From Spirochaetota bacterium (GTDB lineage: Bacteria > Spirochaetota > UBA4802 > UBA5550), in NCBI GenBank assembly GCA_050298055.1, contig JBNKTL010000053.1:1-32634 (forward strand): a stretch of 32,634 nt of DNA. Direction: 5' to 3'. The notes below the pieces were generated by a model. That model was not told the DNA's origin. It saw only the letters and a list, made by a program, of their open reading frames with translations, and ran no database searches. A program made the position numbers and the translations under genes. This document shows positions 18,282 through 32,634 of this stretch, piece by piece; the stretch's first letter is position 1, and each line of letters begins with the position of its first letter.

Positions 18282-18512
18282 ATGAAAGTAAAGACATCTA
18301 TAACACTATCCGATTCTGTCATACATGAAATTGATAATATCATTAGCTCAAAAGGTAACAGATCAATTTTTATTGAGAAAGCAATCATCTATTATCTTGA
18401 AAAGAGAAAAAAGGATGAAAGAAATAAAAAAGACCTGGAAATAATAAACAAAACAGCTGATAAATTAAATAAAGAAGCCGAGGATATTCTCTCCTACCAG
18501 GTTGAATTGTGA
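18282..18512 (+). CDS. Ribbon-helix-helix antitoxin
   Basis: KVKTSITL beta-strand, then helix and [10 protein letters not shown]; 4 bp overlap with the downstream toxin. Confidence 0.85.
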
Positions 18513-18835
18513 AAAGAGGTGAATTATACAGAGTTTATAAAGCCTCAAAAATTGACCCGAAAAAATACCGCGTTTTTGCTGTTGTCAGCAGACAAACATT
18601 AATCGATTCGAAGTTTTCTACAGTAATTTGTGCTCCAATTTACAGCAGCTATAGTGAAATCTCAACACAAGTCCCCGTCGGAGTTGATGACGGATTAAAA
18701 CATAACAGCTGCATTTACTGCGATGAATTAATCAGTATTCCGAAATCAGCATTGACAGATTACATCGGATCACTTTCGGAAGAAAAAATGAAGATACTGG
18801 ACTCTGCTTTAAAGGTATCTCTGGATGTAGAATAA
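18509..18835 (+). CDS. mazF: PemK/MazF family endoribonuclease toxin
   Basis: [40 protein letters not shown]. Confidence 0.9.
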
Positions 18836-20096: not shown

Positions 20097-20930
20097 ATGA
20101 AAAAACCAATTCACCCATTACTCATTCTTTTTTCTGCATTTTTACTTATTATTTCCGGTTGCAGCAAAGGGGAAAAAGATGAGACAGTTGAGGAGAAGGT
20201 GGATATTGCCTCAATCTCCTCATCAAAAATAATCAGCATCCTCTCCTCCAGCAATCTCCATGGTGTAAACATTAATTACCGGGTAAGTAATATTTTTGAC
20301 AAACTTCCCGACGGATGCTGGTGTGAAGGGTCTTCCGGTGACGGAAAGGGACAATATGTTATTTTAACATTTGATAAAATAGTCACAGTGAACAAGTTCT
20401 TTATAATGAACGGCTTTGCCGATACCAAGTTCTACAGAAAAAAAAACAGGATCCGCACTCTGGATATTAATGGTACGGTTGTGAAACTTGCCGACACTCC
20501 TTATGTCCAGGAAATAAAATTAAAAAAACCGGTCACAGGGAATAAAATAAAATTCACTATCACCGGTGTCTATAAGGGTGAACGTGATGACGATGCATGT
20601 ATAGCCGAGCTCTCTTTTCAAAAGATAGGCATTGCTCCAAAGAAAACAATTGTCTATCCTGTTACCCTACCCAGAAACGGATATTCCTTCACCCTTGGTG
20701 ATGAAGGGAAAGTCAACGTCTCCGGTATTGGCGATGTTGATTGTCCCGCGATCTTCGTTAAAGGAAACTGGACCCTGAATTCAAGGGGAAATTATGTTGT
20801 CGATTATACCGTAAAAAGCGACAAAATGTGCGGCGGCATCCAGATTATTAAAAGAAGTAAATCGTGGGATTTCAGCAGCATGAAGACTGTCTTTACTCCC
20901 GATCAGTTGAAGAGGAGAATGCGGTTTTAA
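20097..20930 (+). CDS. Lipoprotein with a discoidin-like / NADase-type glycan-binding beta-sandwich domain
   Basis: AGGAG RBS, lipobox IISGC, pattern WCEG..GDG.G...NGF...NR...I..VYKG...D.CIAEL. Confidence 0.75.
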   Translation: MKKPIHPLLILFSAFLLIISGCSKGEKDETVEEKVDIASISSSKIISILSSSNLHGVNINYRVSNIFDKLPDGCWCEGSSGDGKGQYVILTFDKIVTVNKFFIMNGFADTKFYRKKNRIRTLDINGTVVKLADTPYVQEIKLKKPVTGNKIKFTITGVYKGERDDDACIAELSFQKIGIAPKKTIVYPVTLPRNGYSFTLGDEGKVNVSGIGDVDCPAIFVKGNWTLNSRGNYVVDYTVKSDKMCGGIQIIKRSKSWDFSSMKTVFTPDQLKRRMRF

Positions 20931-22461: not shown

Positions 22462-25053
22462 GTGCCAGATATTAATGACCGCGAAACATTCCGTTTTTTA
22501 AATGTCCTGGACGAGATTGAAAAGGGAGAGGTCTTCAGCAAGCTGAAAAAGATTCCCTTTAAAAAGGGTGAAATTATCTGCAGGAAAGGTGATCCGGGGA
22601 TTTCTCTCTTCATGATATCATCAGGGAGAGTTGATTCAATTATAAACAGTGCAGGGAACGAGTACAGGATTGACAGTAAAGAAGAAGGGGAAGTCTTTGG
22701 TGAAATTTCCCTTTTTACCGGCAAACCGAGACCCTCTGACATCAAAGCGGCCACAGACGGTGAACTCTTTGAACTTAAAAAAACCGATTTTGAAGAAATT
22801 GTAAAAAAACACCCCTCGATAAAAGACAAGCTCCTGATACTGCTGGCCGGGCAGCTTCACAAATCTGTTGTAACAAAACACCTGCATGAATCCAAAAATG
22901 ACGATGCCATAATCGATCTCATAAGCAAGACCCGGCCGCCGGAAATTGACCACTATCCGGGCGTTTCACGATGGGCGGAAGATCTGAACAGGTATATCCT
23001 TGAACTGAGCATGTCTCATAAAAATGTACTCGTCACAGGCTCCCCCGGCACCGAGAAGTCCCTCGTAGCGGAACTTATCCATTTTGTAAAGCCGGGTGAG
23101 AAGGGACATCTCCTCTTTTTGAACTGTGCGGAACCTCCCCCGGTCCTGAGGAATATTGATGATACCTATGCTGATCTGTGTGAAAAGCCCGCCCTGCTTG
23201 CCGCACAGGAGTACGCCCTTTTCGGCATAAAGAAATGCGGTTCAGATACCGTTGAAATGACCGGGAAAGGGTACCTTGAACTGGCTTCCGGCGGGACCCT
23301 TGTTCTTGAAAACACCGATAAGCTCCTTCCGGAAGCACAGGAAAAACTGGCCGGGTATCTCGCCACACCCCCCGGGAAGCCGTTCAATGAGACCGGTAAG
23401 ATCCGCTACAATCTTCGTCTCATTGCAACTGCCTCACAGGATATTGAACAGATGGCGGATACAGGAGAATTCCACAGCACCCTTTTTGATCTCCTGAGAG
23501 AGGAATATATCGAAATAATTCCTCTCTGGAAAAGGAAAAAGGACATTCAGGTAATCGCCGAACTGATCCTCAATGACAGGAAGAAGAGAGAGGGGAAGGA
23601 GATACAGGGATTTACCCATGAAGCAATAAGTGTTCTTGTAAACTACGAGTGGCCCCTGAACTATGAACAGCTGAAACAGGTTGTTTACAGGGCAGTTGCC
23701 CTCTGTACCGAAGACCGGATAAGGGACGACCACCTGATACTGGATATTCTCTCCTTTTCACAGGAGGGTCAGGTCAACCTGCTGAACTTCAGTTTTTTTC
23801 AAAAGCTGGTCCATAAAAGCTATTTCCCCACTATCATAAAAAATATTTCAATACCAATTTTCATCGCGCTTACTATTTATATGCTTGCGGGACCGGAGAA
23901 CCGAAACCTTGCAAATATTATTATCTGGTCACTCTGGTGGCCCACCCTTCTCTTTCTCAATGCCATTGGACCCAGAAGCTGGTGCTCTGTCTGCCCGCTG
24001 CCTGATATAGGAAGCGGTTCCCATCTTTTTTTCAACGGGCTCTTCGCGCCGCCGGCTTTTTTGAAAAAGTACGCTCAGCCCCTGGGTATCGCCGGATTTT
24101 TTGTCATTCTCTTTACCGAATATGTCTTTCATATGTTCAGGAACCCGTCCGCAACCGGGTATCTTCTGCTTACCATGCTTGCAGGGGCATCTATCATGGG
24201 ACTGCTCTGGGGAAAGAGAGCATGGTGCAAGTATTTTTGTCCCCTGGGGAGAATGCTGAGCCTCTTCTCCCCGGTTTCCCTCCTTGAATTGAGAAGCAAT
24301 AAGAACATCTGTATTAACCAGTGCGCAACATACGACTGCATAAAGGACAATAGCTGCCCCATGGGTATCCACCCGTCAACAACGGTAAATAACTATGACT
24401 GCGTATTCTGCCTCTCCTGCGTCAAAAAATGTCCCTTTAATGCCATACATATAAGCGGGAGGGTCCCCTGGAGGGGTGTCCTTGAGAAAAAATACTGGCA
24501 GATCCGCGGAGGCCTTTTTGCCATCCTGATAACAGGTTCTGTCCTGGCGGTAAACCTGCCCAAACTGATTTACGGGAACAATTATGTTTTTGCAATGCTC
24601 CCTGAAATCATGAAGACAAATATCAACTCCTGGCAGGACCTGCTTTTTCTGACCGCGCTTTTAGGGTATCCCCTTCTGGTTTACGCCATTAATTATCTTT
24701 TTCTCCCCAGGGAAAACAGGACAATTTTCAGAAGCCTCGGTTATTCATACCTGCCCCTGGCTTTCTTCGGTCTTTTCAGCGTCTATTTCAGGGAGTTTAT
24801 CAATAAGGGACCGAATATCCTTCCCCTGGTTTTTGAGCTTGCAGGACTTCAGGGCAGGGTCCCCCTGGAGTATCTTGTCCTGAACCTGGGAACACTGAAC
24901 CTGCTCTTTCCCTTTATCGCGTTGACATCTCTCCTCATCTCAATCTACCTTCTGAACCAGATATCCGCCAGGGTGGAGATGCCGGAAAGGGTAAGAAGGC
25001 TTAACAGGTTTATTCTTATTCTTACCGCACTGTTGTTCCTCTTTCTTCTTTAA
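22462..25053 (+). CDS. Fusion of cNMP-binding domain, degenerate sigma54-activator AAA+ domain and NapH/FixG-like membrane 4Fe-4S domain
   Basis: GEVFGEISLFTGKPR (cNMP); VTGSPGTEKS, LNCA, ALFG, GYLELASGGTL, RKKDI, YEWPLN (AAA+); WCSVCP, WCKYFCPLG, CVFCLSCVKKCP and many TM helices; GGAG before GTG. Confidence 0.88.
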   Translation: MPDINDRETFRFLNVLDEIEKGEVFSKLKKIPFKKGEIICRKGDPGISLFMISSGRVDSIINSAGNEYRIDSKEEGEVFGEISLFTGKPRPSDIKAATDGELFELKKTDFEEIVKKHPSIKDKLLILLAGQLHKSVVTKHLHESKNDDAIIDLISKTRPPEIDHYPGVSRWAEDLNRYILELSMSHKNVLVTGSPGTEKSLVAELIHFVKPGEKGHLLFLNCAEPPPVLRNIDDTYADLCEKPALLAAQEYALFGIKKCGSDTVEMTGKGYLELASGGTLVLENTDKLLPEAQEKLAGYLATPPGKPFNETGKIRYNLRLIATASQDIEQMADTGEFHSTLFDLLREEYIEIIPLWKRKKDIQVIAELILNDRKKREGKEIQGFTHEAISVLVNYEWPLNYEQLKQVVYRAVALCTEDRIRDDHLILDILSFSQEGQVNLLNFSFFQKLVHKSYFPTIIKNISIPIFIALTIYMLAGPENRNLANIIIWSLWWPTLLFLNAIGPRSWCSVCPLPDIGSGSHLFFNGLFAPPAFLKKYAQPLGIAGFFVILFTEYVFHMFRNPSATGYLLLTMLAGASIMGLLWGKRAWCKYFCPLGRMLSLFSPVSLLELRSNKNICINQCATYDCIKDNSCPMGIHPSTTVNNYDCVFCLSCVKKCPFNAIHISGRVPWRGVLEKKYWQIRGGLFAILITGSVLAVNLPKLIYGNNYVFAMLPEIMKTNINSWQDLLFLTALLGYPLLVYAINYLFLPRENRTIFRSLGYSYLPLAFFGLFSVYFREFINKGPNILPLVFELAGLQGRVPLEYLVLNLGTLNLLFPFIALTSLLISIYLLNQISARVEMPERVRRLNRFILILTALLFLFLL

Positions 25054-25648: not shown

Positions 25649-27484
25649 CTAATCCATCAATTCAGCATAGGCGCTGTTAACCAGGTCATCGATACCGCTC
25701 TTGACCTTCCTTTTAAGATATTCCGCTTTGAGTGTCATCCTGGATATATAGGAACGGGCGGCAACCTCCTTTTTTTCCGAGATTGTAGCCTGTCTCAGGA
25801 GGAGATAGGACTTGATGATACCGCTGAGAATATCCGCGTAATCCCTCTGGTACATACCGTTGTACCTGCGGCCCTCTTCCTTCCCCTTGTTCCTCTCCTG
25901 GATAAAAAGTGACTCCCTGACCTCCTTCAGTTCCCTTCTCATCTGGTCCACAACAGGAAGGAGTTCGCGAATGATATTTTTACCGTTGGAATTCTTCAGT
26001 ATCTCGTCCCTGTAGTCATCCATGAACCTGTCGAAGAAGAGCTTGTTGGTTTCGGTCTCCACAAAACTGCTGTTGCCTCCCATCTTATACTGGTTGATAA
26101 GAGCAACTTTCTCCGAATAGAAGGACTCGTTGAAGATCTGGTCCAGTTGTATCTGGCTGGTCCCTTCATAGATATTAGTGATCCTCACATCCCGGTAATA
26201 TCTTTCCATGGGATAATCCTTGGTAAACCCGTTCCCTCCGAAAACCTGGAGTGAAGAGTTCGCCACCCTGTTCCCCAGCTCGGCACCGTCGTATTTGGAG
26301 AGACAGACGAGAAGTTCGGTTATCTTTGAGTAGACACGGAGTTTTTTCTTGAGCTCTTCATACTCCGGGCTTCCCTCCTCCATCTCTTTCATCTTTTTCT
26401 TCAGGGCTTCCTTCATATCGAAATTAAAGGCGGCATAGTATATGAGGGCCCGGGTTGCCTGGAGATCAATCTCGTTCTCATAGAGGATCTGCCTCACCGG
26501 CGGGTGTTCCACAATGGGGACACCAAACTGCACCCTCTCGTTTGTTGCATAGTTTCTCGCCATCTGGTGCGCGGCCTGCCCGATTCCGAGCCCCTGGGTA
26601 GCGGTCCCCATCCGCGCGATATACATGAGCATGATCATGTTGGGCACAAGCCCGTCACCGATCTTCCCTATCATCACACCGGGAGAATTATCAAAGTAGA
26701 GCTCGCAGGTAGGGGACCCGGTAATGCCGAGCTTATGCTCGACCCGTGCGACCGCCTTGTCCTCAGACATGACAAGTATCATGCTGATCTCACCATTGAC
26801 CTTTGCCAGGGTCAGTACATCACCGAACCCGTTGGTTATAAAGATCTTTGTTCCGCTTACAAGGTAGACATCGCCAAGCTTTTCCAGTTCTTTGACCCTG
26901 GCACTCCTCTTTGATTTATCATCTCCCACAGGTTCGGCAACGGTAGTCATACCGGAGAGGTCGCTGCCCGCATGGGGCTCGGTAAGTCCCATACCGCAGA
27001 TTCTCTCACCGGTGATCAGTTTCGGGAGGTACTCTTCCCTGATTTTCTCGTTTGCGAACTCGTTGATGACCAGGGCGCATCCCTCCTGAAGCATGGGAGA
27101 AAGGCCAATACTGGAATCTGCCATTGAGAAGAGTTCGCCGATGGCAAAAAATGAGGTTAGGGCAAAACCGAATCCCCCGGCAGCTTCGGGCAGCGTAGTG
27201 CCGCAGAAAAGTCCCATGGATTTAAGCCTGTTCAGGTTGTCCTGCATTTTTGCGGGGATCCTGACCTCTTTCTTTCCTTTTTTTCCATCCACAAGTTCGC
27301 ATCCCTCACGATCAACTTCTTCCGCTGCGGGAATAACGTTCTTTTCACAGAACTGGGCGACCGACTGCAGTGTCATAATATATTCATCCTTCAGGCTCTC
27401 TCCGCCGTTTATCTCTGCAATCCTCTCCCAGTCGATAAACTGCTCCATGTTAAAAAGAAGGTCATCGTAGATAAGCTTGTCCAT
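25649..27484 (-). CDS. Acyl-CoA dehydrogenase family protein
   Basis: MGLTEPHAGSDL, GTKIFITNG, EHKLGITGSPTC, RVQFG, QVFGGNG, RDVRITNIYEGTSQIQ; ATG 27484 has a GGAGG RBS (ORF track start 27511). Confidence 0.93.
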   Translation of the reverse strand: MDKLIYDDLLFNMEQFIDWERIAEINGGESLKDEYIMTLQSVAQFCEKNVIPAAEEVDREGCELVDGKKGKKEVRIPAKMQDNLNRLKSMGLFCGTTLPEAAGGFGFALTSFFAIGELFSMADSSIGLSPMLQEGCALVINEFANEKIREEYLPKLITGERICGMGLTEPHAGSDLSGMTTVAEPVGDDKSKRSARVKELEKLGDVYLVSGTKIFITNGFGDVLTLAKVNGEISMILVMSEDKAVARVEHKLGITGSPTCELYFDNSPGVMIGKIGDGLVPNMIMLMYIARMGTATQGLGIGQAAHQMARNYATNERVQFGVPIVEHPPVRQILYENEIDLQATRALIYYAAFNFDMKEALKKKMKEMEEGSPEYEELKKKLRVYSKITELLVCLSKYDGAELGNRVANSSLQVFGGNGFTKDYPMERYYRDVRITNIYEGTSQIQLDQIFNESFYSEKVALINQYKMGGNSSFVETETNKLFFDRFMDDYRDEILKNSNGKNIIRELLPVVDQMRRELKEVRESLFIQERNKGKEEGRRYNGMYQRDYADILSGIIKSYLLLRQATISEKKEVAARSYISRMTLKAEYLKRKVKSGIDDLVNSAYAELMD

Positions 27485-27536
27485 TTTATCCTCCGGTTTT
27501 GTTATATACAATCAGTTTTATTTCTTACAGTTAACT

Positions 27537-27795: not shown

Positions 27796-28551
27796 TCACT
27801 TCACCGTCGATATTGAAATCATATATTCACCGTGCCGGTAAACCTTTACAAAAGGTCCGTGGCAGCAGACTTCCGCAAACCTCTTCTCGACTTCCCGGTA
27901 GATCTCCACGGAGTAATCGCTGCCCCCCATACTGCTTATGAAGATGTCCTTCAGGTTGAGGTTCAGGCCCGACCCGATGGATTTCAGCACCGCCTCTTTC
28001 AATGTCCAGAAGAGCGTTATCTTTTCCTTATTAAAGCTTCCGTTTCCCCCGGACCTGAACTGGTCAATTTCCTGACTGCTGAAAGCAATCCTCAAAAATG
28101 ATCCGTCCCTGTCCTCTATCTTCTCCGCGTCAATTCCCACTCCCCTGAATTCGTCTCTTCCGCATACCAGTGAGAGGGCAATATTTCCGGAATGGGTGAT
28201 GGATATCATGAGATCTGACCGGTCACCGTTCAGCAGTATCTCCGGTTCCCCGGTATCTGTTCTTCTGATAGTGATTTCTCCCGGTTCCGGGACCTTTTCA
28301 CGACCATGGTCCCTGTAGTAGTTAACCACGGCCTCCTTCCCGGCCAGCCTTCCCGAAATAAAATCCGCCTTCCTCTTGGAGACCTTCAGCCTGTTCAGGT
28401 ACTCCAATTCCCACTCCGAGAGGTAATCGAAAAACTCGTATTCTCCCGTCTCCTTGAGGATTTTTGAAACCCTGTCTATATGAAACCGGGAGAGGGACAT
28501 CCTCTCCCTCCGGCACTCACTGATAATTGTCTCAATACCCGTATCATCCAT
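27796..28551 (-). CDS. Sfp/PfaE-type 4'-phosphopantetheinyl transferase
   Basis: GRLAGKEAV, GEP, SITHSG, GIDAEKI, FWTLKEAVLKSIGSGL; starts 8 nt after the PKS stop codon. Confidence 0.93.
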   Translation of the reverse strand: MDDTGIETIISECRRERMSLSRFHIDRVSKILKETGEYEFFDYLSEWELEYLNRLKVSKRKADFISGRLAGKEAVVNYYRDHGREKVPEPGEITIRRTDTGEPEILLNGDRSDLMISITHSGNIALSLVCGRDEFRGVGIDAEKIEDRDGSFLRIAFSSQEIDQFRSGGNGSFNKEKITLFWTLKEAVLKSIGSGLNLNLKDIFISSMGGSDYSVEIYREVEKRFAEVCCHGPFVKVYRHGEYMISISTVK

Positions 28552-28559
28552 CAGCTGCT

Positions 28560-31500
28560 TTAGTTTAATGATATTTTCTTCTCCTCGGGAAGTGTACCGG
28601 TTTTGATCATCCTGTACCCTTTCAGGAGCGAATAGACATTTCCCTCCGCATCGAACATCCGGGTATCGTATACCTGCTTTTCGCCCTCTGTTCCCCTGAA
28701 CTCTGAGACCACATAGAGCTCCTTCACCTCTGCCGGGATACTTCGGAAAATAATCTCCTCCATACTGTCGGGAAGTGAATTTATCTCCAGGTTTGCCATG
28801 GCATAGATCCCTGAATTCTGCAGGGCTGTCTCGATGACCAGCGGATCAGTTACCAGCTCCGGTTTTTTCGTAAAGCTGAAGATCTCGTTGTTCCTCCCGG
28901 CCATTACGCCCAGGGAACTCTTCTCGTCAACAATGATCACCGACTCAAGAACCTGGAAAAGCGGCCCGTGAAAGAAACGGGAATAGACATCCTCCTTTTT
29001 AAGGAGTCTTTCCCCGTTTTTTTTGAACTTCCCGATAATTTTTCCCAGCCTGTTTATCTCCTTCATCTTTTTGAAAGATCTCTTTTTAGCGGAGAGGATA
29101 ATCTCACCCCGGAAGTGGACCCGGGTGTCCCCGAGCTTCGTCCCATCCCTGTTGAAGAACTCCCTCTCCAGGAACGCTTCCAGGACAATATCGGTTCCTT
29201 CCACAGCTTTCTTTGCCACCCTGATGGTCATCTCAAAGGGCTCGTTTTTCAGGACTTTCAGGGGAACGAGAAAGGTGACATTTCTCAATGACATAAAGTT
29301 CATCTTCGGGTAGAGGAGCCGTGCCGCTTCCGCGAAGGACTCCATACCCATGACCGCGGGAAGCCACGGCACGCCGTCGATCTCATGGTCGGGAAGATAA
29401 ATGTCCCTGGCCGGGTCAATGGTTTTCCGGGCAGCAAGGGATATTCCGGGATTAACCTCAACCAGCCGGTCTATCATGGGATACCGGGACTTCTCCTTCT
29501 CGAGGAGTTGCGATATCCTGGCAAAATCCTTTGACTCTGTCCCCGCAATGACTCCGTGGCTGTCAATGGGGCCTACATTTCCCGCTATGATGACCTCGGT
29601 GTCGGTCCCGAAGAGAAGCTCCTCCCTGAACCGTGTCACACCTTCATCCAAGGGTATCATGTCTATCCCCGCCATTTCGAATATTTTCGCGATACTCCCC
29701 TTTGTGGCCATACCCACGTCCTTCCATCCCGACCAGTTGATGCAGAGACACTTTGTGTCCTTCATGCTTCCCCGGAGCATCTGCGCGTATTTGTTGAGAA
29801 GGTCATTTGCCGCGGCATAATCTGTCTGGCCGTTGTTCCCGAACCTTCCCGAGATGGAACCGAAGAGGACAATCGCCTTAAGCTTCTGGTCCCGTGTGAG
29901 TTCCACGAGGTTATAACATCCGTCTATCTTCACGTCCAGGATCCGGACAAAGTCCTCATACTTCTTCTCCTCCATGAGCTTGCTCTCCTCGAGACCCGCC
30001 CCGTGTATCAGCACGTCGATCCTGCCGAATTTCTTCTTTATCTCCTCAATGGTCTTCTTCATATGGTCATGGCTTGAGACATCACAGGGGAAGTACTCAA
30101 CCGCCCCGGCTCCCGCCTCCTTCATCTTTTCCACATTTCTGTACTTCTCTATTGCCGTAAGATATTTTCCATACTCGCGGTCGATCATCACCGGTGTGAC
30201 TCTCTCATGCTCTGCCTTGAGCCGGGCCACCACGGATTCTTTCAGCTCCCTGAGTCCCTTTTCATCAAGGGACGCGTACTTTTCGGCGTCTTCAGGGATA
30301 CCGGAGCGTGAGATGATGGCGATTTTCGGTTTATACCGCCCGGCAATCTCCTTGGCGATCTCGCTGGTTATCCCGTATCCCCCCCCGGTAATCATAAAGA
30401 CGGAACCCGGTTCTATTTCAGTTACCGGACCACCGGACCTGTCCGCTTCCCTGTAGATGACCTGGGGAGCAACACGGGTTTTCCCCCTGTAGCCCACTTC
30501 GGTCCTCCTTCCGCCGTACCGGAGTTCGGTGATAATTGCATTCGCCGTCTCTCCGTGCTTTGCGTCCAATGAGAAATCAATACATTTAACGAGCAGTCCC
30601 TCTATCTCCTTCTCAAAACTCTTGGTGATTCCCGCCACACCTCCTCCCACGGGATCACCGGCCTCAAATCCTTCAAATCCGAAGCTTCCGCCCATTTGAA
30701 CGGCAGACGCTATAAACCCCGAACCGGATTTTGCATTCTGAACAAGATCTTTCTGCGCTTCCTTTACGATGAGAAAGAGACTCTTGATCCTCCTGAAGAC
30801 CTTCTCTTTCCAGAGGTTAAAATCTGTCTTTCTGATATCCGCAGATTCCTCCAGGGGAACACAGTGGATGATACCGTTAAGGATCCCCTGTTCCCTTATC
30901 TTTCCCACTTCTTTTCTGAGGGAATCCTCCGAGCCGGGACCCTCCACTTTCAGGAGGCTGATATTTGCCCCCTCCTTCTCAAGTTTCTTCCTGAGATTTT
31001 CCGCAACGCCCTTTCCGTCATGGGTGATGAGGATATTCATCCCCTTAAAGTCCAGGGCAGCATCCTGTTTTTTCTCCAGGGGAAGCTCAACCGATTCCAC
31101 TACCATCCTTCTGATGGGGCCGGTTCCGCTCCCTGTTTCCGGGGCTTTCTCGCCGGTGGTATCGTTCACCACCGCGGCAGCCGAAAGACCGGGAGACCGG
31201 CTCTCCACGAACTGCACCACATGGTTCAGGGTGGGAAAGTCCTTTATCTGCAGATCGTCTTCACGGGGGATATTAAAGAGCTCACGGACCCTGCCGAAGA
31301 GCTCCGCCTGTTTTACCGTGTCTATCCCCAGGTCCGATTCCATGTCCAGGTCAAACTCGATGAGGTCCTCGGGATACCCCGTCTTTTCAGCCACAAGGGC
31401 AACGATCTTCTTCCTCACCTCGTCAAGTTCCGCCGGGGGTGCTGCCGCCGCTGATGCCGGAATTGCGGCTGATACCGCCGCGGCAGCCGGCGCCGGGGTC

Positions 31501-32634
31501 TGTGAAGGAAGATCGGGAGACTTGTCCCTGACAAACTGCACCACATGGTTCAGGGTGGGGAAATCCTTTATCTGCAGATCGTCCTCACGGGGGATATTAA
31601 AAAGCTCACGGACCTTACCGAAGAGCTCCGCCTGTTTTACCGTGTCAATTCCCAGGTCCGATTCCATGTCCAGGTCAAACTCGATGAGGTCTTCGGGATA
31701 ACCTGTCTTCTCGGAGACAAGGGCAACAATTTTCTTCATGACTTCATCAATCTTCCCCCCTGTTTCCTGCATTGATACCGCCGGTGTGGTCTCCGTCATG
31801 GATTGTGTCACAAGGGCAAGATCAGCCCGGGCCACTATCTCCGGGGACCTCTCCTGCACAAACTGTACCACATGGTTCAGGGTGGGAAAGTCCTTTATCT
31901 GCAGATCGTCCTCGCGGGGGATATTAAAGAGATCACGGACAGTCCCGAAGAGCTCTGCCTGCTTCACCGTGTCTATCCCCAGGTCCGATTCCATATCCAG
32001 GTCAAATTCAATGAGGTCCTCGGGATAACCTGTCTTCTCCGCCACAAGGGCGACGATCTTCTTTCTCACCTCGTCCAGCACTCCTCCCGGAGACGCTGTT
32101 GTCACGGCAGGAGCCGCTGCAGCAGCCGACGAAGAAGCAGCAGGAACATCGGGAACCAGAGAATCAATATCCGGGGACCTCTCCCTGACAAACTGCACCA
32201 CATGGTTCAGGGTGGGGAAGTCCTTTATCTGCAGATCGTCCTCGCGGGGGATATTGAAGAGATCACGGACGGTCCCGAAGAGTTCCGCCTGCTTCACCGT
32301 GTCTATCCCCAGGTCCGATTCCATGTCCAGGTCAAACTCGATGAGGTCTTCGGGATACCCCGTCTTCTCGGAAACAATGGCAACAATCTTCCGACGTACA
32401 ATGTCCATTCCCCCGGCGGGAGCGGCGACGGCCGATGCCGGTACTGCAGAAGAGACGGGAGAAGCTTCAGCGGGAAGATCCGGAGCCTTATCTTTCACAA
32501 ACTGCACCACATGGTTTAATGTGGGGAAGTCCTTTATCTGCAGATCATCCTCGCGGGGGATATTGAAGAGATCACGGACGGTCCCGAAAAGTTCCGCCTG
32601 CTTCACCGTGTCTATCCCCAGGTCCGATTCCATG
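28560..32634 (-). CDS. PfaA-like iterative type I PKS/FAS, 5'-truncated: tandem ACP (at least 5) - KR - DH
   Basis: SEKTGYPEDLIEFDLDMESDLGIDTVKQAELF repeats with Ala/Pro linkers; KR ITGGGYGIT, HGAG, GQTDYAAAN; DH DHEIDGVPWLP and FFHGPLFQ; the frame is open to the window edge. Confidence 0.93.
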   Translation of the reverse strand, partial: MESDLGIDTVKQAELFGTVRDLFNIPREDDLQIKDFPTLNHVVQFVKDKAPDLPAEASPVSSAVPASAVAAPAGGMDIVRRKIVAIVSEKTGYPEDLIEFDLDMESDLGIDTVKQAELFGTVRDLFNIPREDDLQIKDFPTLNHVVQFVRERSPDIDSLVPDVPAASSSAAAAAPAVTTASPGGVLDEVRKKIVALVAEKTGYPEDLIEFDLDMESDLGIDTVKQAELFGTVRDLFNIPREDDLQIKDFPTLNHVVQFVQERSPEIVARADLALVTQSMTETTPAVSMQETGGKIDEVMKKIVALVSEKTGYPEDLIEFDLDMESDLGIDTVKQAELFGKVRELFNIPREDDLQIKDFPTLNHVVQFVRDKSPDLPSQTPAPAAAAVSAAIPASAAAAPPAELDEVRKKIVALVAEKTGYPEDLIEFDLDMESDLGIDTVKQAELFGRVRELFNIPREDDLQIKDFPTLNHVVQFVESRSPGLSAAAVVNDTTGEKAPETGSGTGPIRRMVVESVELPLEKKQDAALDFKGMNILITHDGKGVAENLRKKLEKEGANISLLKVEGPGSEDSLRKEVGKIREQGILNGIIHCVPLEESADIRKTDFNLWKEKVFRRIKSLFLIVKEAQKDLVQNAKSGSGFIASAVQMGGSFGFEGFEAGDPVGGGVAGITKSFEKEIEGLLVKCIDFSLDAKHGETANAIITELRYGGRRTEVGYRGKTRVAPQVIYREADRSGGPVTEIEPGSVFMITGGGYGITSEIAKEIAGRYKPKIAIISRSGIPEDAEKYASLDEKGLRELKESVVARLKAEHERVTPVMIDREYGKYLTAIEKYRNVEKMKEAGAGAVEYFPCDVSSHDHMKKTIEEIKKKFGRIDVLIHGAGLEESKLMEEKKYEDFVRILDVKIDGCYNLVELTRDQKLKAIVLFGSISGRFGNNGQTDYAAANDLLNKYAQMLRGSMKDTKCLCINWSGWKDVGMATKGSIAKIFEMAGIDMIPLDEGVTRFREELLFGTDTEVIIAGNVGPIDSHGVIAGTESKDFARISQLLEKEKSRYPMIDRLVEVNPGISLAARKTIDPARDIYLPDHEIDGVPWLPAVMGMESFAEAARLLYPKMNFMSLRNVTFLVPLKVLKNEPFEMTIRVAKKAVEGTDIVLEAFLEREFFNRDGTKLGDTRVHFRGEIILSAKKRSFKKMKEINRLGKIIGKFKKNGERLLKKEDVYSRFFHGPLFQVLESVIIVDEKSSLGVMAGRNNEIFSFTKKPELVTDPLVIETALQNSGIYAMANLEINSLPDSMEEIIFRSIPAEVKELYVVSEFRGTEGEKQVYDTRMFDAEGNVYSLLKGYRMIKTGTLPEEKKISLN
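31195..32634 (-). repeat. Five near-identical tandem ACP-coding repeats (first one partial)
   Basis: Equivalent codons are spaced 309, 330, 327 and 324 bp apart; cores nearly identical, linkers divergent. Confidence 0.95.

Follow-up and report, generated by a model that had tools for sequence, protein, structure and literature searches.

Introduction

Carrier domains of fatty-acid synthases (FAS), polyketide synthases (PKS) and nonribosomal peptide synthetases (NRPS) hold their growing chains on a 4'-phosphopantetheine arm, which in the textbook description sits on a conserved Ser, and the PROSITE attachment-site pattern, on which motif-based annotation relies, requires this residue. Among the described systems closest to the one presented here are the secondary lipid synthases of Type R. 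As laid out in the main text of Shulse and Allen (2011; PMC3098273), Type R comprises a PfaA homolog of the order KS-MAT-CLF-ACP(3-6)-KR, with tandem acyl carrier protein (ACP) domains, followed by a gene for a phosphopantetheinyl transferase (PPTase). The same text reports the type in Koribacter, Solibacter, Elusimicrobium and Roseiflexus (PMC3098273).

Here we analyze a PfaA-like megasynthase gene in a stretch of 32,634 bases from a Spirochaetota bacterium (assembly GCA_050298055.1, contig JBNKTL010000053.1), hereafter the window. All ACP domains visible in this synthase have Thr at the place of the attachment Ser, and a PPTase gene follows directly downstream. Comparison with homologs points to a carrier class that would be primed on Thr.

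Results and Discussion

Threonine at the Serine Position

The window is an entire contig (C53) of a 4.7 Mb draft genome in 199 contigs, estimated to be 98.3% complete. The 3' part of the iterative megasynthase gene fills its end (28560..32633, minus strand) with a stop-free open reading frame (ORF) of 1357 aa, in the order ACP x5 (the first partial), ketoreductase (KR) and dehydratase (DH). The motif DLGIDTVKQAELF is found in all five visible ACPs of ORF 28560-32633(-), with GIDT at synthase residues 9, 112, 222, 331 and 439. On the minus strand, the partial ACP 1 spans 32475..32633, with its Thr codon at 32607-32609, ACP 2 spans 32166..32423 (codon 32298-32300), ACP 3 31836..32093 (31968-31970), ACP 4 31509..31766 (31641-31643) and ACP 5 31185..31442 (31317-31319). 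The codon is ACG in 5/5, and translation together with a codon check bears out the initial annotation, which had reported five GIDT carriers with ACG at these very sites. The synonymous differences that it described are likewise present, the fourth copy reading GGA ATT and the others GGG ATA. Comparing the complete 258-nt units, of which there are four, in pairs gives 39-50 nucleotide differences and 10-14 differences among the 86 aa, indicating diverged copies and not one error. The Pfam PP-binding family (PF00550) matches the synthase in 4 stretches with 83 bits against a cut-off of 20.8.

Alignment with phmmer to solved ACPs brings the Thr into the column of the DS Ser, opposite 'ESDLGIDSV' of PigH and 'DLGADSL' of several AcpPs. 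Six PDB sequences matched at E <= 0.01; they and the 5 listed alignments all have Ser. The third copy was used for a structure model. Its AlphaFold model, based on 17 natural sequences, has a mean predicted local distance difference test (pLDDT) value of 88.3, with helices at residues 2-21, 42-55 and 72-82, and Thr42 is the first residue of helix II. The best PDB matches of this model in Foldseek are all ACPs, with template-modelling (TM) scores of 0.74-0.88. The carrier domains thus match the ACP profile and share the ACP fold, and lack the defining Ser of D-S-(L/I).

Conservation Among Homologs

Homologs were sought in 5.8 billion proteins with the KR-DH region alone as query, so that the search could not favour Thr. 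An ACP profile was then run over 120 homologs and the query. These 121 proteins contain 330 ACP domains, 305 of them with Thr and 23 with Ser, the remaining 2 being spurious weak matches. Counted by protein, 102 have Thr only, 13 Ser only, 2 are mixed and 4 are without an ACP call. Thr-type proteins bear source names from Spirochaetota, Chloroflexi (Roseiflexus, Anaerolinea), Poseidoniales/'Thalassarchaeum', Thermoplasmatota and Heimdallarchaeota; those from Spirochaetota are 45-59% identical to the KR-DH part of the window's synthase. Ser-type homologs carry the motif LGIDSIKRVEI.

The distribution of the two residues was followed on a FastTree of the KR-DH region with 117 rows, from which the four proteins lacking an ACP call had been dropped. 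Twelve of the 13 Ser-only rows fall into one clade with support 100, four deep clades hold Thr, and the Ser/Thr labels need just 4 changes. As a quick tree with long branches, it is used only for the point that Thr is not a tip-level quirk. The possibility raised initially that Thr might be private to this genome is answered in the negative by these counts and clades.

Codons were read at 134 attachment sites from 51 DNA sources: ACG at 65, ACC at 55, ACA at 9, ACT at 3, TCG at 1 and TCC at 1. All four Thr codons are in use. Ser is only one base away, so that it is Thr itself that is kept. A mundane origin of the Thr would be an error of sequencing or assembly, decay to a pseudogene, or ACG decoded in a non-standard way, and the contig does end in repeats, with a further small contig (C146) apparently made of collapsed ones. 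We give this reading practically no credence, as it is refuted by the Thr counts in hundreds of homologs, by the use of all four Thr codons, and by five diverged in-frame copies next to a paralog that uses ACC. The argument of the initial annotation, that an error would not strike all five copies, is reinforced by the same Thr in homologs. A look for decay in the synthase gene returned none: the frame is open, and since the contig stops inside the ACP repeats, the gene is cut by the assembly rather than decayed.

The arm could also sit on another residue, most obviously the Ser of MESDLG, which lies six residues upstream of the Thr in all five copies and which had been rated the less likely site from the outset. 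Among 256 distinct Thr-type domains, this column holds Ser in only 8%, and no column exceeds 32% Ser. A paralogous synthase of the same genome has LEADLGIDT, with Ala instead of Ser at this position, and PigH shows the same 'ES' ahead of a normal DS site, making the alternative very improbable. The best-conserved stretch of the 256 domains is LGxDTVKQAE, which contains the Thr.

Full-length proteins were inspected for additional carriers. The number of Pfam PP-binding stretches equals that of Thr domains in P0019 (3), P0045 (1) and P0096 (4), and the archaeal P0045 (2666 aa) has one carrier only, a Thr one. In the close full-length orthologs P0002-P0005, no G-x-D-S site was seen in an ACP-like context, so the search for GxDS carriers suggested initially adds no Ser-ACP in these orthologs.

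The Linked Phosphopantetheinyl Transferase

A gene for a 251-aa protein starts 9 bases past the synthase stop (27796..28551, minus strand) and matches PF01648 with 69.4 bits against a cut-off of 25, in line with the PPTase gene that had been noted after the synthase. In an alignment of 14 sequences, the residues of SITHS, GIDxE and WTxKEAxxK are invariant, including D141, E143, E186 and K190 in 14/14. By comparison with Sfp, these four would be the metal- and CoA-binding acidic and Lys residues, and the motif residues would serve catalysis. The AlphaFold2 model (pLDDT 89.9) finds its best PDB matches in AASDHPPT (2cg5), Sfp (4mrt and 1qr0), PcpS and PptT, at TM 0.60-0.72. Judged by its PF01648 domain and the two-lobed pseudodimer fold of the model, the protein is an Sfp-type (group II) PPTase.

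Sequence matches of the PPTase to PDB PPTases reach only ~1e-3; those to PPTase domains fused at the C-terminus of Thr-type synthases, in nine archaeal proteins, lie at 1e-27 to 1e-14. Its genomic linkage was assessed with an alignment of the PPTase only and one genome per species, which gave 80 loci; a word-based PPTase homolog search had returned 10 matches only. At 48 of the 80 loci, ACPs lie upstream on the same strand, and they comprise 123 of the Thr type, 2 of the Ser type and 3 that gaps or contig ends truncate. The median distance from the last ACP to the PPTase in these 48 loci is 2.8 kb. Too little upstream sequence was available at 15 of the 80. Named carriers include Desulfobacter latus, D. 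vibrioformis DSM 8776, Thermanaerothrix daxensis GNS-1 and Archangium violaceum Cb vi76. In the ortholog of Spirochaetes RBG_16_49_21, a run of N (L015:6886-6990) sets in right at the Thr codon of the second ACP; the break is a scaffold gap within the tandem repeats rather than a stop.

A HMMER search with the PPTase profile in 1.84 billion representatives yielded 15,042 matches at E <= 0.001, of which 2,231 reach E <= 1e-10. Among the best 150 of the 15,042, 35 proteins are at least 450 aa long; 13 of these contain ACPs, 30/30 of the Thr type, and in the other 22 no ACP was seen. On the evidence of these comparisons, the PPTase is a member of a distinct Sfp-type subfamily that adjoins or is fused to Thr-type synthases.

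At the PPTase loci, the two Ser domains (TCG in L065, TCC in L072) are each the first, separate ACP of the synthase, and the one at L072 shares 72-73% identity with its Thr-type orthologs at L034 and L036. Both residues occur within a single protein with a fused PPTase in P0042 (S,T,T,T) and P0061 (S,T,S). These natural exchanges suggest that Ser and Thr play one and the same part at this position and that PPTases of the subfamily can deal with either.

Strict retention of a residue chemically distinct from Ser might also reflect a functional Thr that carries a different group, through direct O-acylation or another phosphodiester linkage. The linked enzyme, however, is a PPTase of the PF01648 family that has the Sfp fold and keeps its CoA/Mg motifs intact, and the synthases retain ordinary KS, AT, KR and DH domains that depend on thioesters, which leaves this explanation improbable.

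Structure prediction of the PPTase with CoA, Mg and the ACP gave a score of 0.55 versus 0.02 for the best control, weak support that was given no weight in either direction. The runs themselves were consistent, with at least 82% of contacts in agreement and partner pLDDT of at least 82. In calibration, the mark was reached by 116/157 solved complexes and by 2/215 mismatched pairs, and the range up to 0.60 held 18 of the 157 solved complexes and both mismatches. PPTase-carrier complexes have already been solved, so that the pass may reflect likeness alone.

Megasynthases and Carriers Elsewhere in the Genome

Recovery of the missing 5' part of the gene, as proposed in the initial annotation, gave a very likely candidate for its start, and the middle stayed unassembled. 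Contig C38 (45779-49196, plus strand) encodes KS-AT and the start of a KS-like domain that runs off the 3' contig end. It is collinear with residues 14-1107 of the orthologs P0002 and P0005 at 67% identity, the two proteins to which the KR-DH part in the window is likewise most similar. The C38 stretch is very likely the missing 5' part. Judged by the orthologs, ~600 aa remain unassembled between C38 and C53, possibly with further ACPs.

A second megasynthase lies on contig C1 (71415-82562, plus strand), with a 3715-aa frame of the order ER(NMO)-KS-KS-AT-KS-like-ACP2-KR-DH and an NMO/FabK-like enoyl reductase domain. Its ACPs read LEADLGIDTVKQVEIF, with ACC as Thr codon. Contig C146 (606 b) consists of two Thr-ACP repeats of the C1 type, which probably represent collapsed repeat copies, so that the number of ACPs in the C1 synthase is likely to exceed the two assembled. 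Relatives show one to five such repeats in the stretches covered. In four relatives, frames of 3847-4099 aa hold tandem LEADLGIDTVKQVEIFG, and a fifth (G019) shows one ACP of the LEADLGIDTVKQVEIFG type in a frame cut by the contig end. The C1 megasynthase may be the primary type I FAS of the organism.

A set of profiles was searched against the draft genome to place the two synthases among its other lipid and carrier genes. The window's PPTase is the single PF01648 match in the genome. AcpP (TIGR00517) has no match above cut-off, the best being the Thr-ACPs themselves at ~34 bits, and AcpS (TIGR00516), FabA/Z (PF07977) and PlsX (PF02504) gave no match in the 98.3%-complete draft. KS domains are confined to the two synthases (C1 and C38), an NRPS/PKS cluster of contig C37 and three weak matches. 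Among 41 related genomes, 34 have AcpP above cut-off, and the other 7 all match the PPTase profile. A missing match in a draft genome does not prove absence, but the pattern fits an essential role of Thr-ACP synthases.

The cluster on C37 (1-8400) comprises C-A-PCP, where PCP denotes a peptidyl carrier protein, an asparagine-synthase-like gene, an 80-aa Ser-ACP and a KS-AT running off the contig. Its carriers are all ordinary Ser types. An ACP of this kind could do the carrier work in trans, with the Thr domains never phosphopantetheinylated and acting as scaffold or non-covalent docking beads. Such a role would accord with the absence of the canonical Ser, and structural roles are among those proposed for tandem ACPs (PMC3585217). 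We regard it as unlikely: the Ser-ACP on C37 belongs to an unrelated NRPS/PKS cluster, full-length members are without any other PP-binding domain, and among the best 150 PPTase relatives, the ACPs of synthases with a fused PPTase domain are of the Thr type in 30/30 cases. The concentration of conservation in LGxDTVKQAE is, moreover, what would be expected of an active site.

Proposed Mechanism

The observations are best accommodated by an iterative PfaA-like type I synthase of the order KS-AT-(KS-like/CLF)-ACPn-KR-DH, in which the Thr hydroxyl at the N-terminus of helix II would hold 4'-phosphopantetheine in place of Ser. The cognate downstream PPTase would move the arm from CoA to the Thr, after which the holo-ACPs would bear malonyl and the growing acyl chains as thioesters, like those of other FAS and PKS. 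The comparisons show the position of the Thr, its deep conservation and its linkage with the PPTase; from these we infer that Thr is probably where phosphopantetheine is attached, that the dedicated PPTase does the priming, and that the domains in holo form would be ordinary thioester carriers. The product would presumably be a long-chain fatty acyl lipid. A Thr-primed class is favoured over a scaffold because PPTases of the same subfamily are fused to synthases that have Thr-type carriers only.

Several points weigh against this reading. E. coli ACP S36T is reportedly not modified by AcpS, which makes Thr a poor substrate for ordinary PPTases. The sole detected PPTase would have to serve the Ser carriers on C37 as well, so that it is either not exclusive to Thr or a second PPTase is unassembled. 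Among the 65 PPTase loci with at least 4 kb upstream or with an ACP shown, 17 are without such an ACP, even at E<1; these belong to more distant relatives, and a few lie near Ser-type PCPs or ACPs. Finally, the statement that no Ser-ACP lies upstream rests on orthologs, the gene's own middle being unassembled.

Why Thr should be kept is a matter of speculation. It might confer orthogonality to housekeeping PPTases and phosphodiesterases, or form a more stable phosphodiester. In a broader and more doubtful scenario, the Thr-ACP and its own PPTase would make up a self-contained priming pair, orthogonal to Ser-ACP and AcpS, which would have let a PfaA-like synthase move between bacteria and archaea and become the primary FAS in some lineages. 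Candidates for such primary synthases are found in this genome and six relatives without AcpP, and in Poseidoniales and Heimdall-type archaea without a type II system.

If Thr priming holds true for this large and ancient family, O-phosphopantetheinyl-threonine would be a new natural protein modification, and the PPTase subfamily would have an altered or broadened nucleophile specificity, with a possible orthogonal priming pair for pathway engineering. It would explain why such clusters always bring their own PPTase, and would bear on fatty-acid synthesis in abundant marine and Asgard archaea and in some bacteria without type II FAS.

Remaining Domains and Neighbouring Genes

Downstream of its carriers, the synthase has a KR domain (29718..30401, minus strand; PF08659, residues 745-972) with YAAAN and glycine-rich motifs. 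A PKS-type DH with HEIDGVPWLP follows (28596..29474, minus strand), matched in both halves by PF21089 (1054-1143) and PF14765 (1219-1346). The intact frame with retained KR and DH described at first is thus corroborated by the Pfam matches in the stop-free 1357 aa.

Directly after the PPTase lies an acyl-CoA dehydrogenase-like gene (25649..27511, minus strand; 620 aa), which possibly belongs to the synthase operon. The arrangement of PPTase and acyl-CoA dehydrogenase-like gene is kept in the closest named ortholog locus, L015 from Spirochaetes, at 57.6% identity. It is possible that this protein performs an enoyl reduction step. The neighbour was considered as a feature of the family and rejected: 3 of the 80 loci match, only L015 directly downstream, with L042 and L044 weaker and elsewhere.

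Divergent from the synthase operon, an 863-aa regulator is encoded at 22462-25053 (plus strand), with a cyclic-nucleotide-binding domain, a sigma-54 AAA+ activator module and C-terminal 4Fe-4S ferredoxin-like motifs. Two further genes on the plus strand are a MazF/PemK-like toxin ORF (18509-18835) and one for a 277-aa protein with an 'NAD glycohydrolase translocation F5/8 type C' domain (20097-20930).

Comparison with Known Systems

The window's synthase matches the layout of Type R, a cluster whose product is uncharacterised. At least five ACPs, KR and DH are present in the window and KS-AT with a KS-like start on C38, a CLF-like domain is whole only in the orthologs, the PPTase gene lies directly downstream, and Roseiflexus and Elusimicrobia relatives are among the Thr-type matches. 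It differs in having a recognisable DH and an acyl-CoA dehydrogenase-like neighbour. The words 'threonine' and 'serine' are both absent from the main text on Type R (PMC3098273), so that a Thr site goes undescribed there. Searches of the main texts of open-access and bioRxiv papers turned up no reference to such carriers, and one may exist elsewhere.

With PfaA of omega-3 PUFA synthases (NCBIfam TIGR02813), the synthase shares a KS-AT at the N-terminus, a row of ACPs with KR and PKS-DH behind it, and a PPTase of its own that is of the Sfp type, as is PfaE. In contrast, the full-length ortholog P0002 reaches 974 bits and the partial P0001 579.1 against a TIGR02813 cut-off of 1010.1, and the Thr-type synthase has an extra KS-like domain between AT and the ACPs. 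No pfaB, pfaC or pfaD lies beside the synthase in the window, the C38 side having been examined for the ORF only. The attachment residue of the window's synthase is Thr, in a carrier motif that is otherwise little changed.

Canonical PF00550 carriers, which Sfp-type PPTases prime, resemble the domains of the synthase in fold, in the nucleophile position at helix II, in the neighbouring D and hydrophobic residues and in having a partner PPTase of the Sfp fold. The difference lies in the defining Ser, in place of which the Thr-type domains have an invariant Thr. Taken together, the comparisons support the view that carrier domains with a Thr as putative nucleophile, along with their co-travelling PPTase subfamily, represent a widespread variant of the known carriers.

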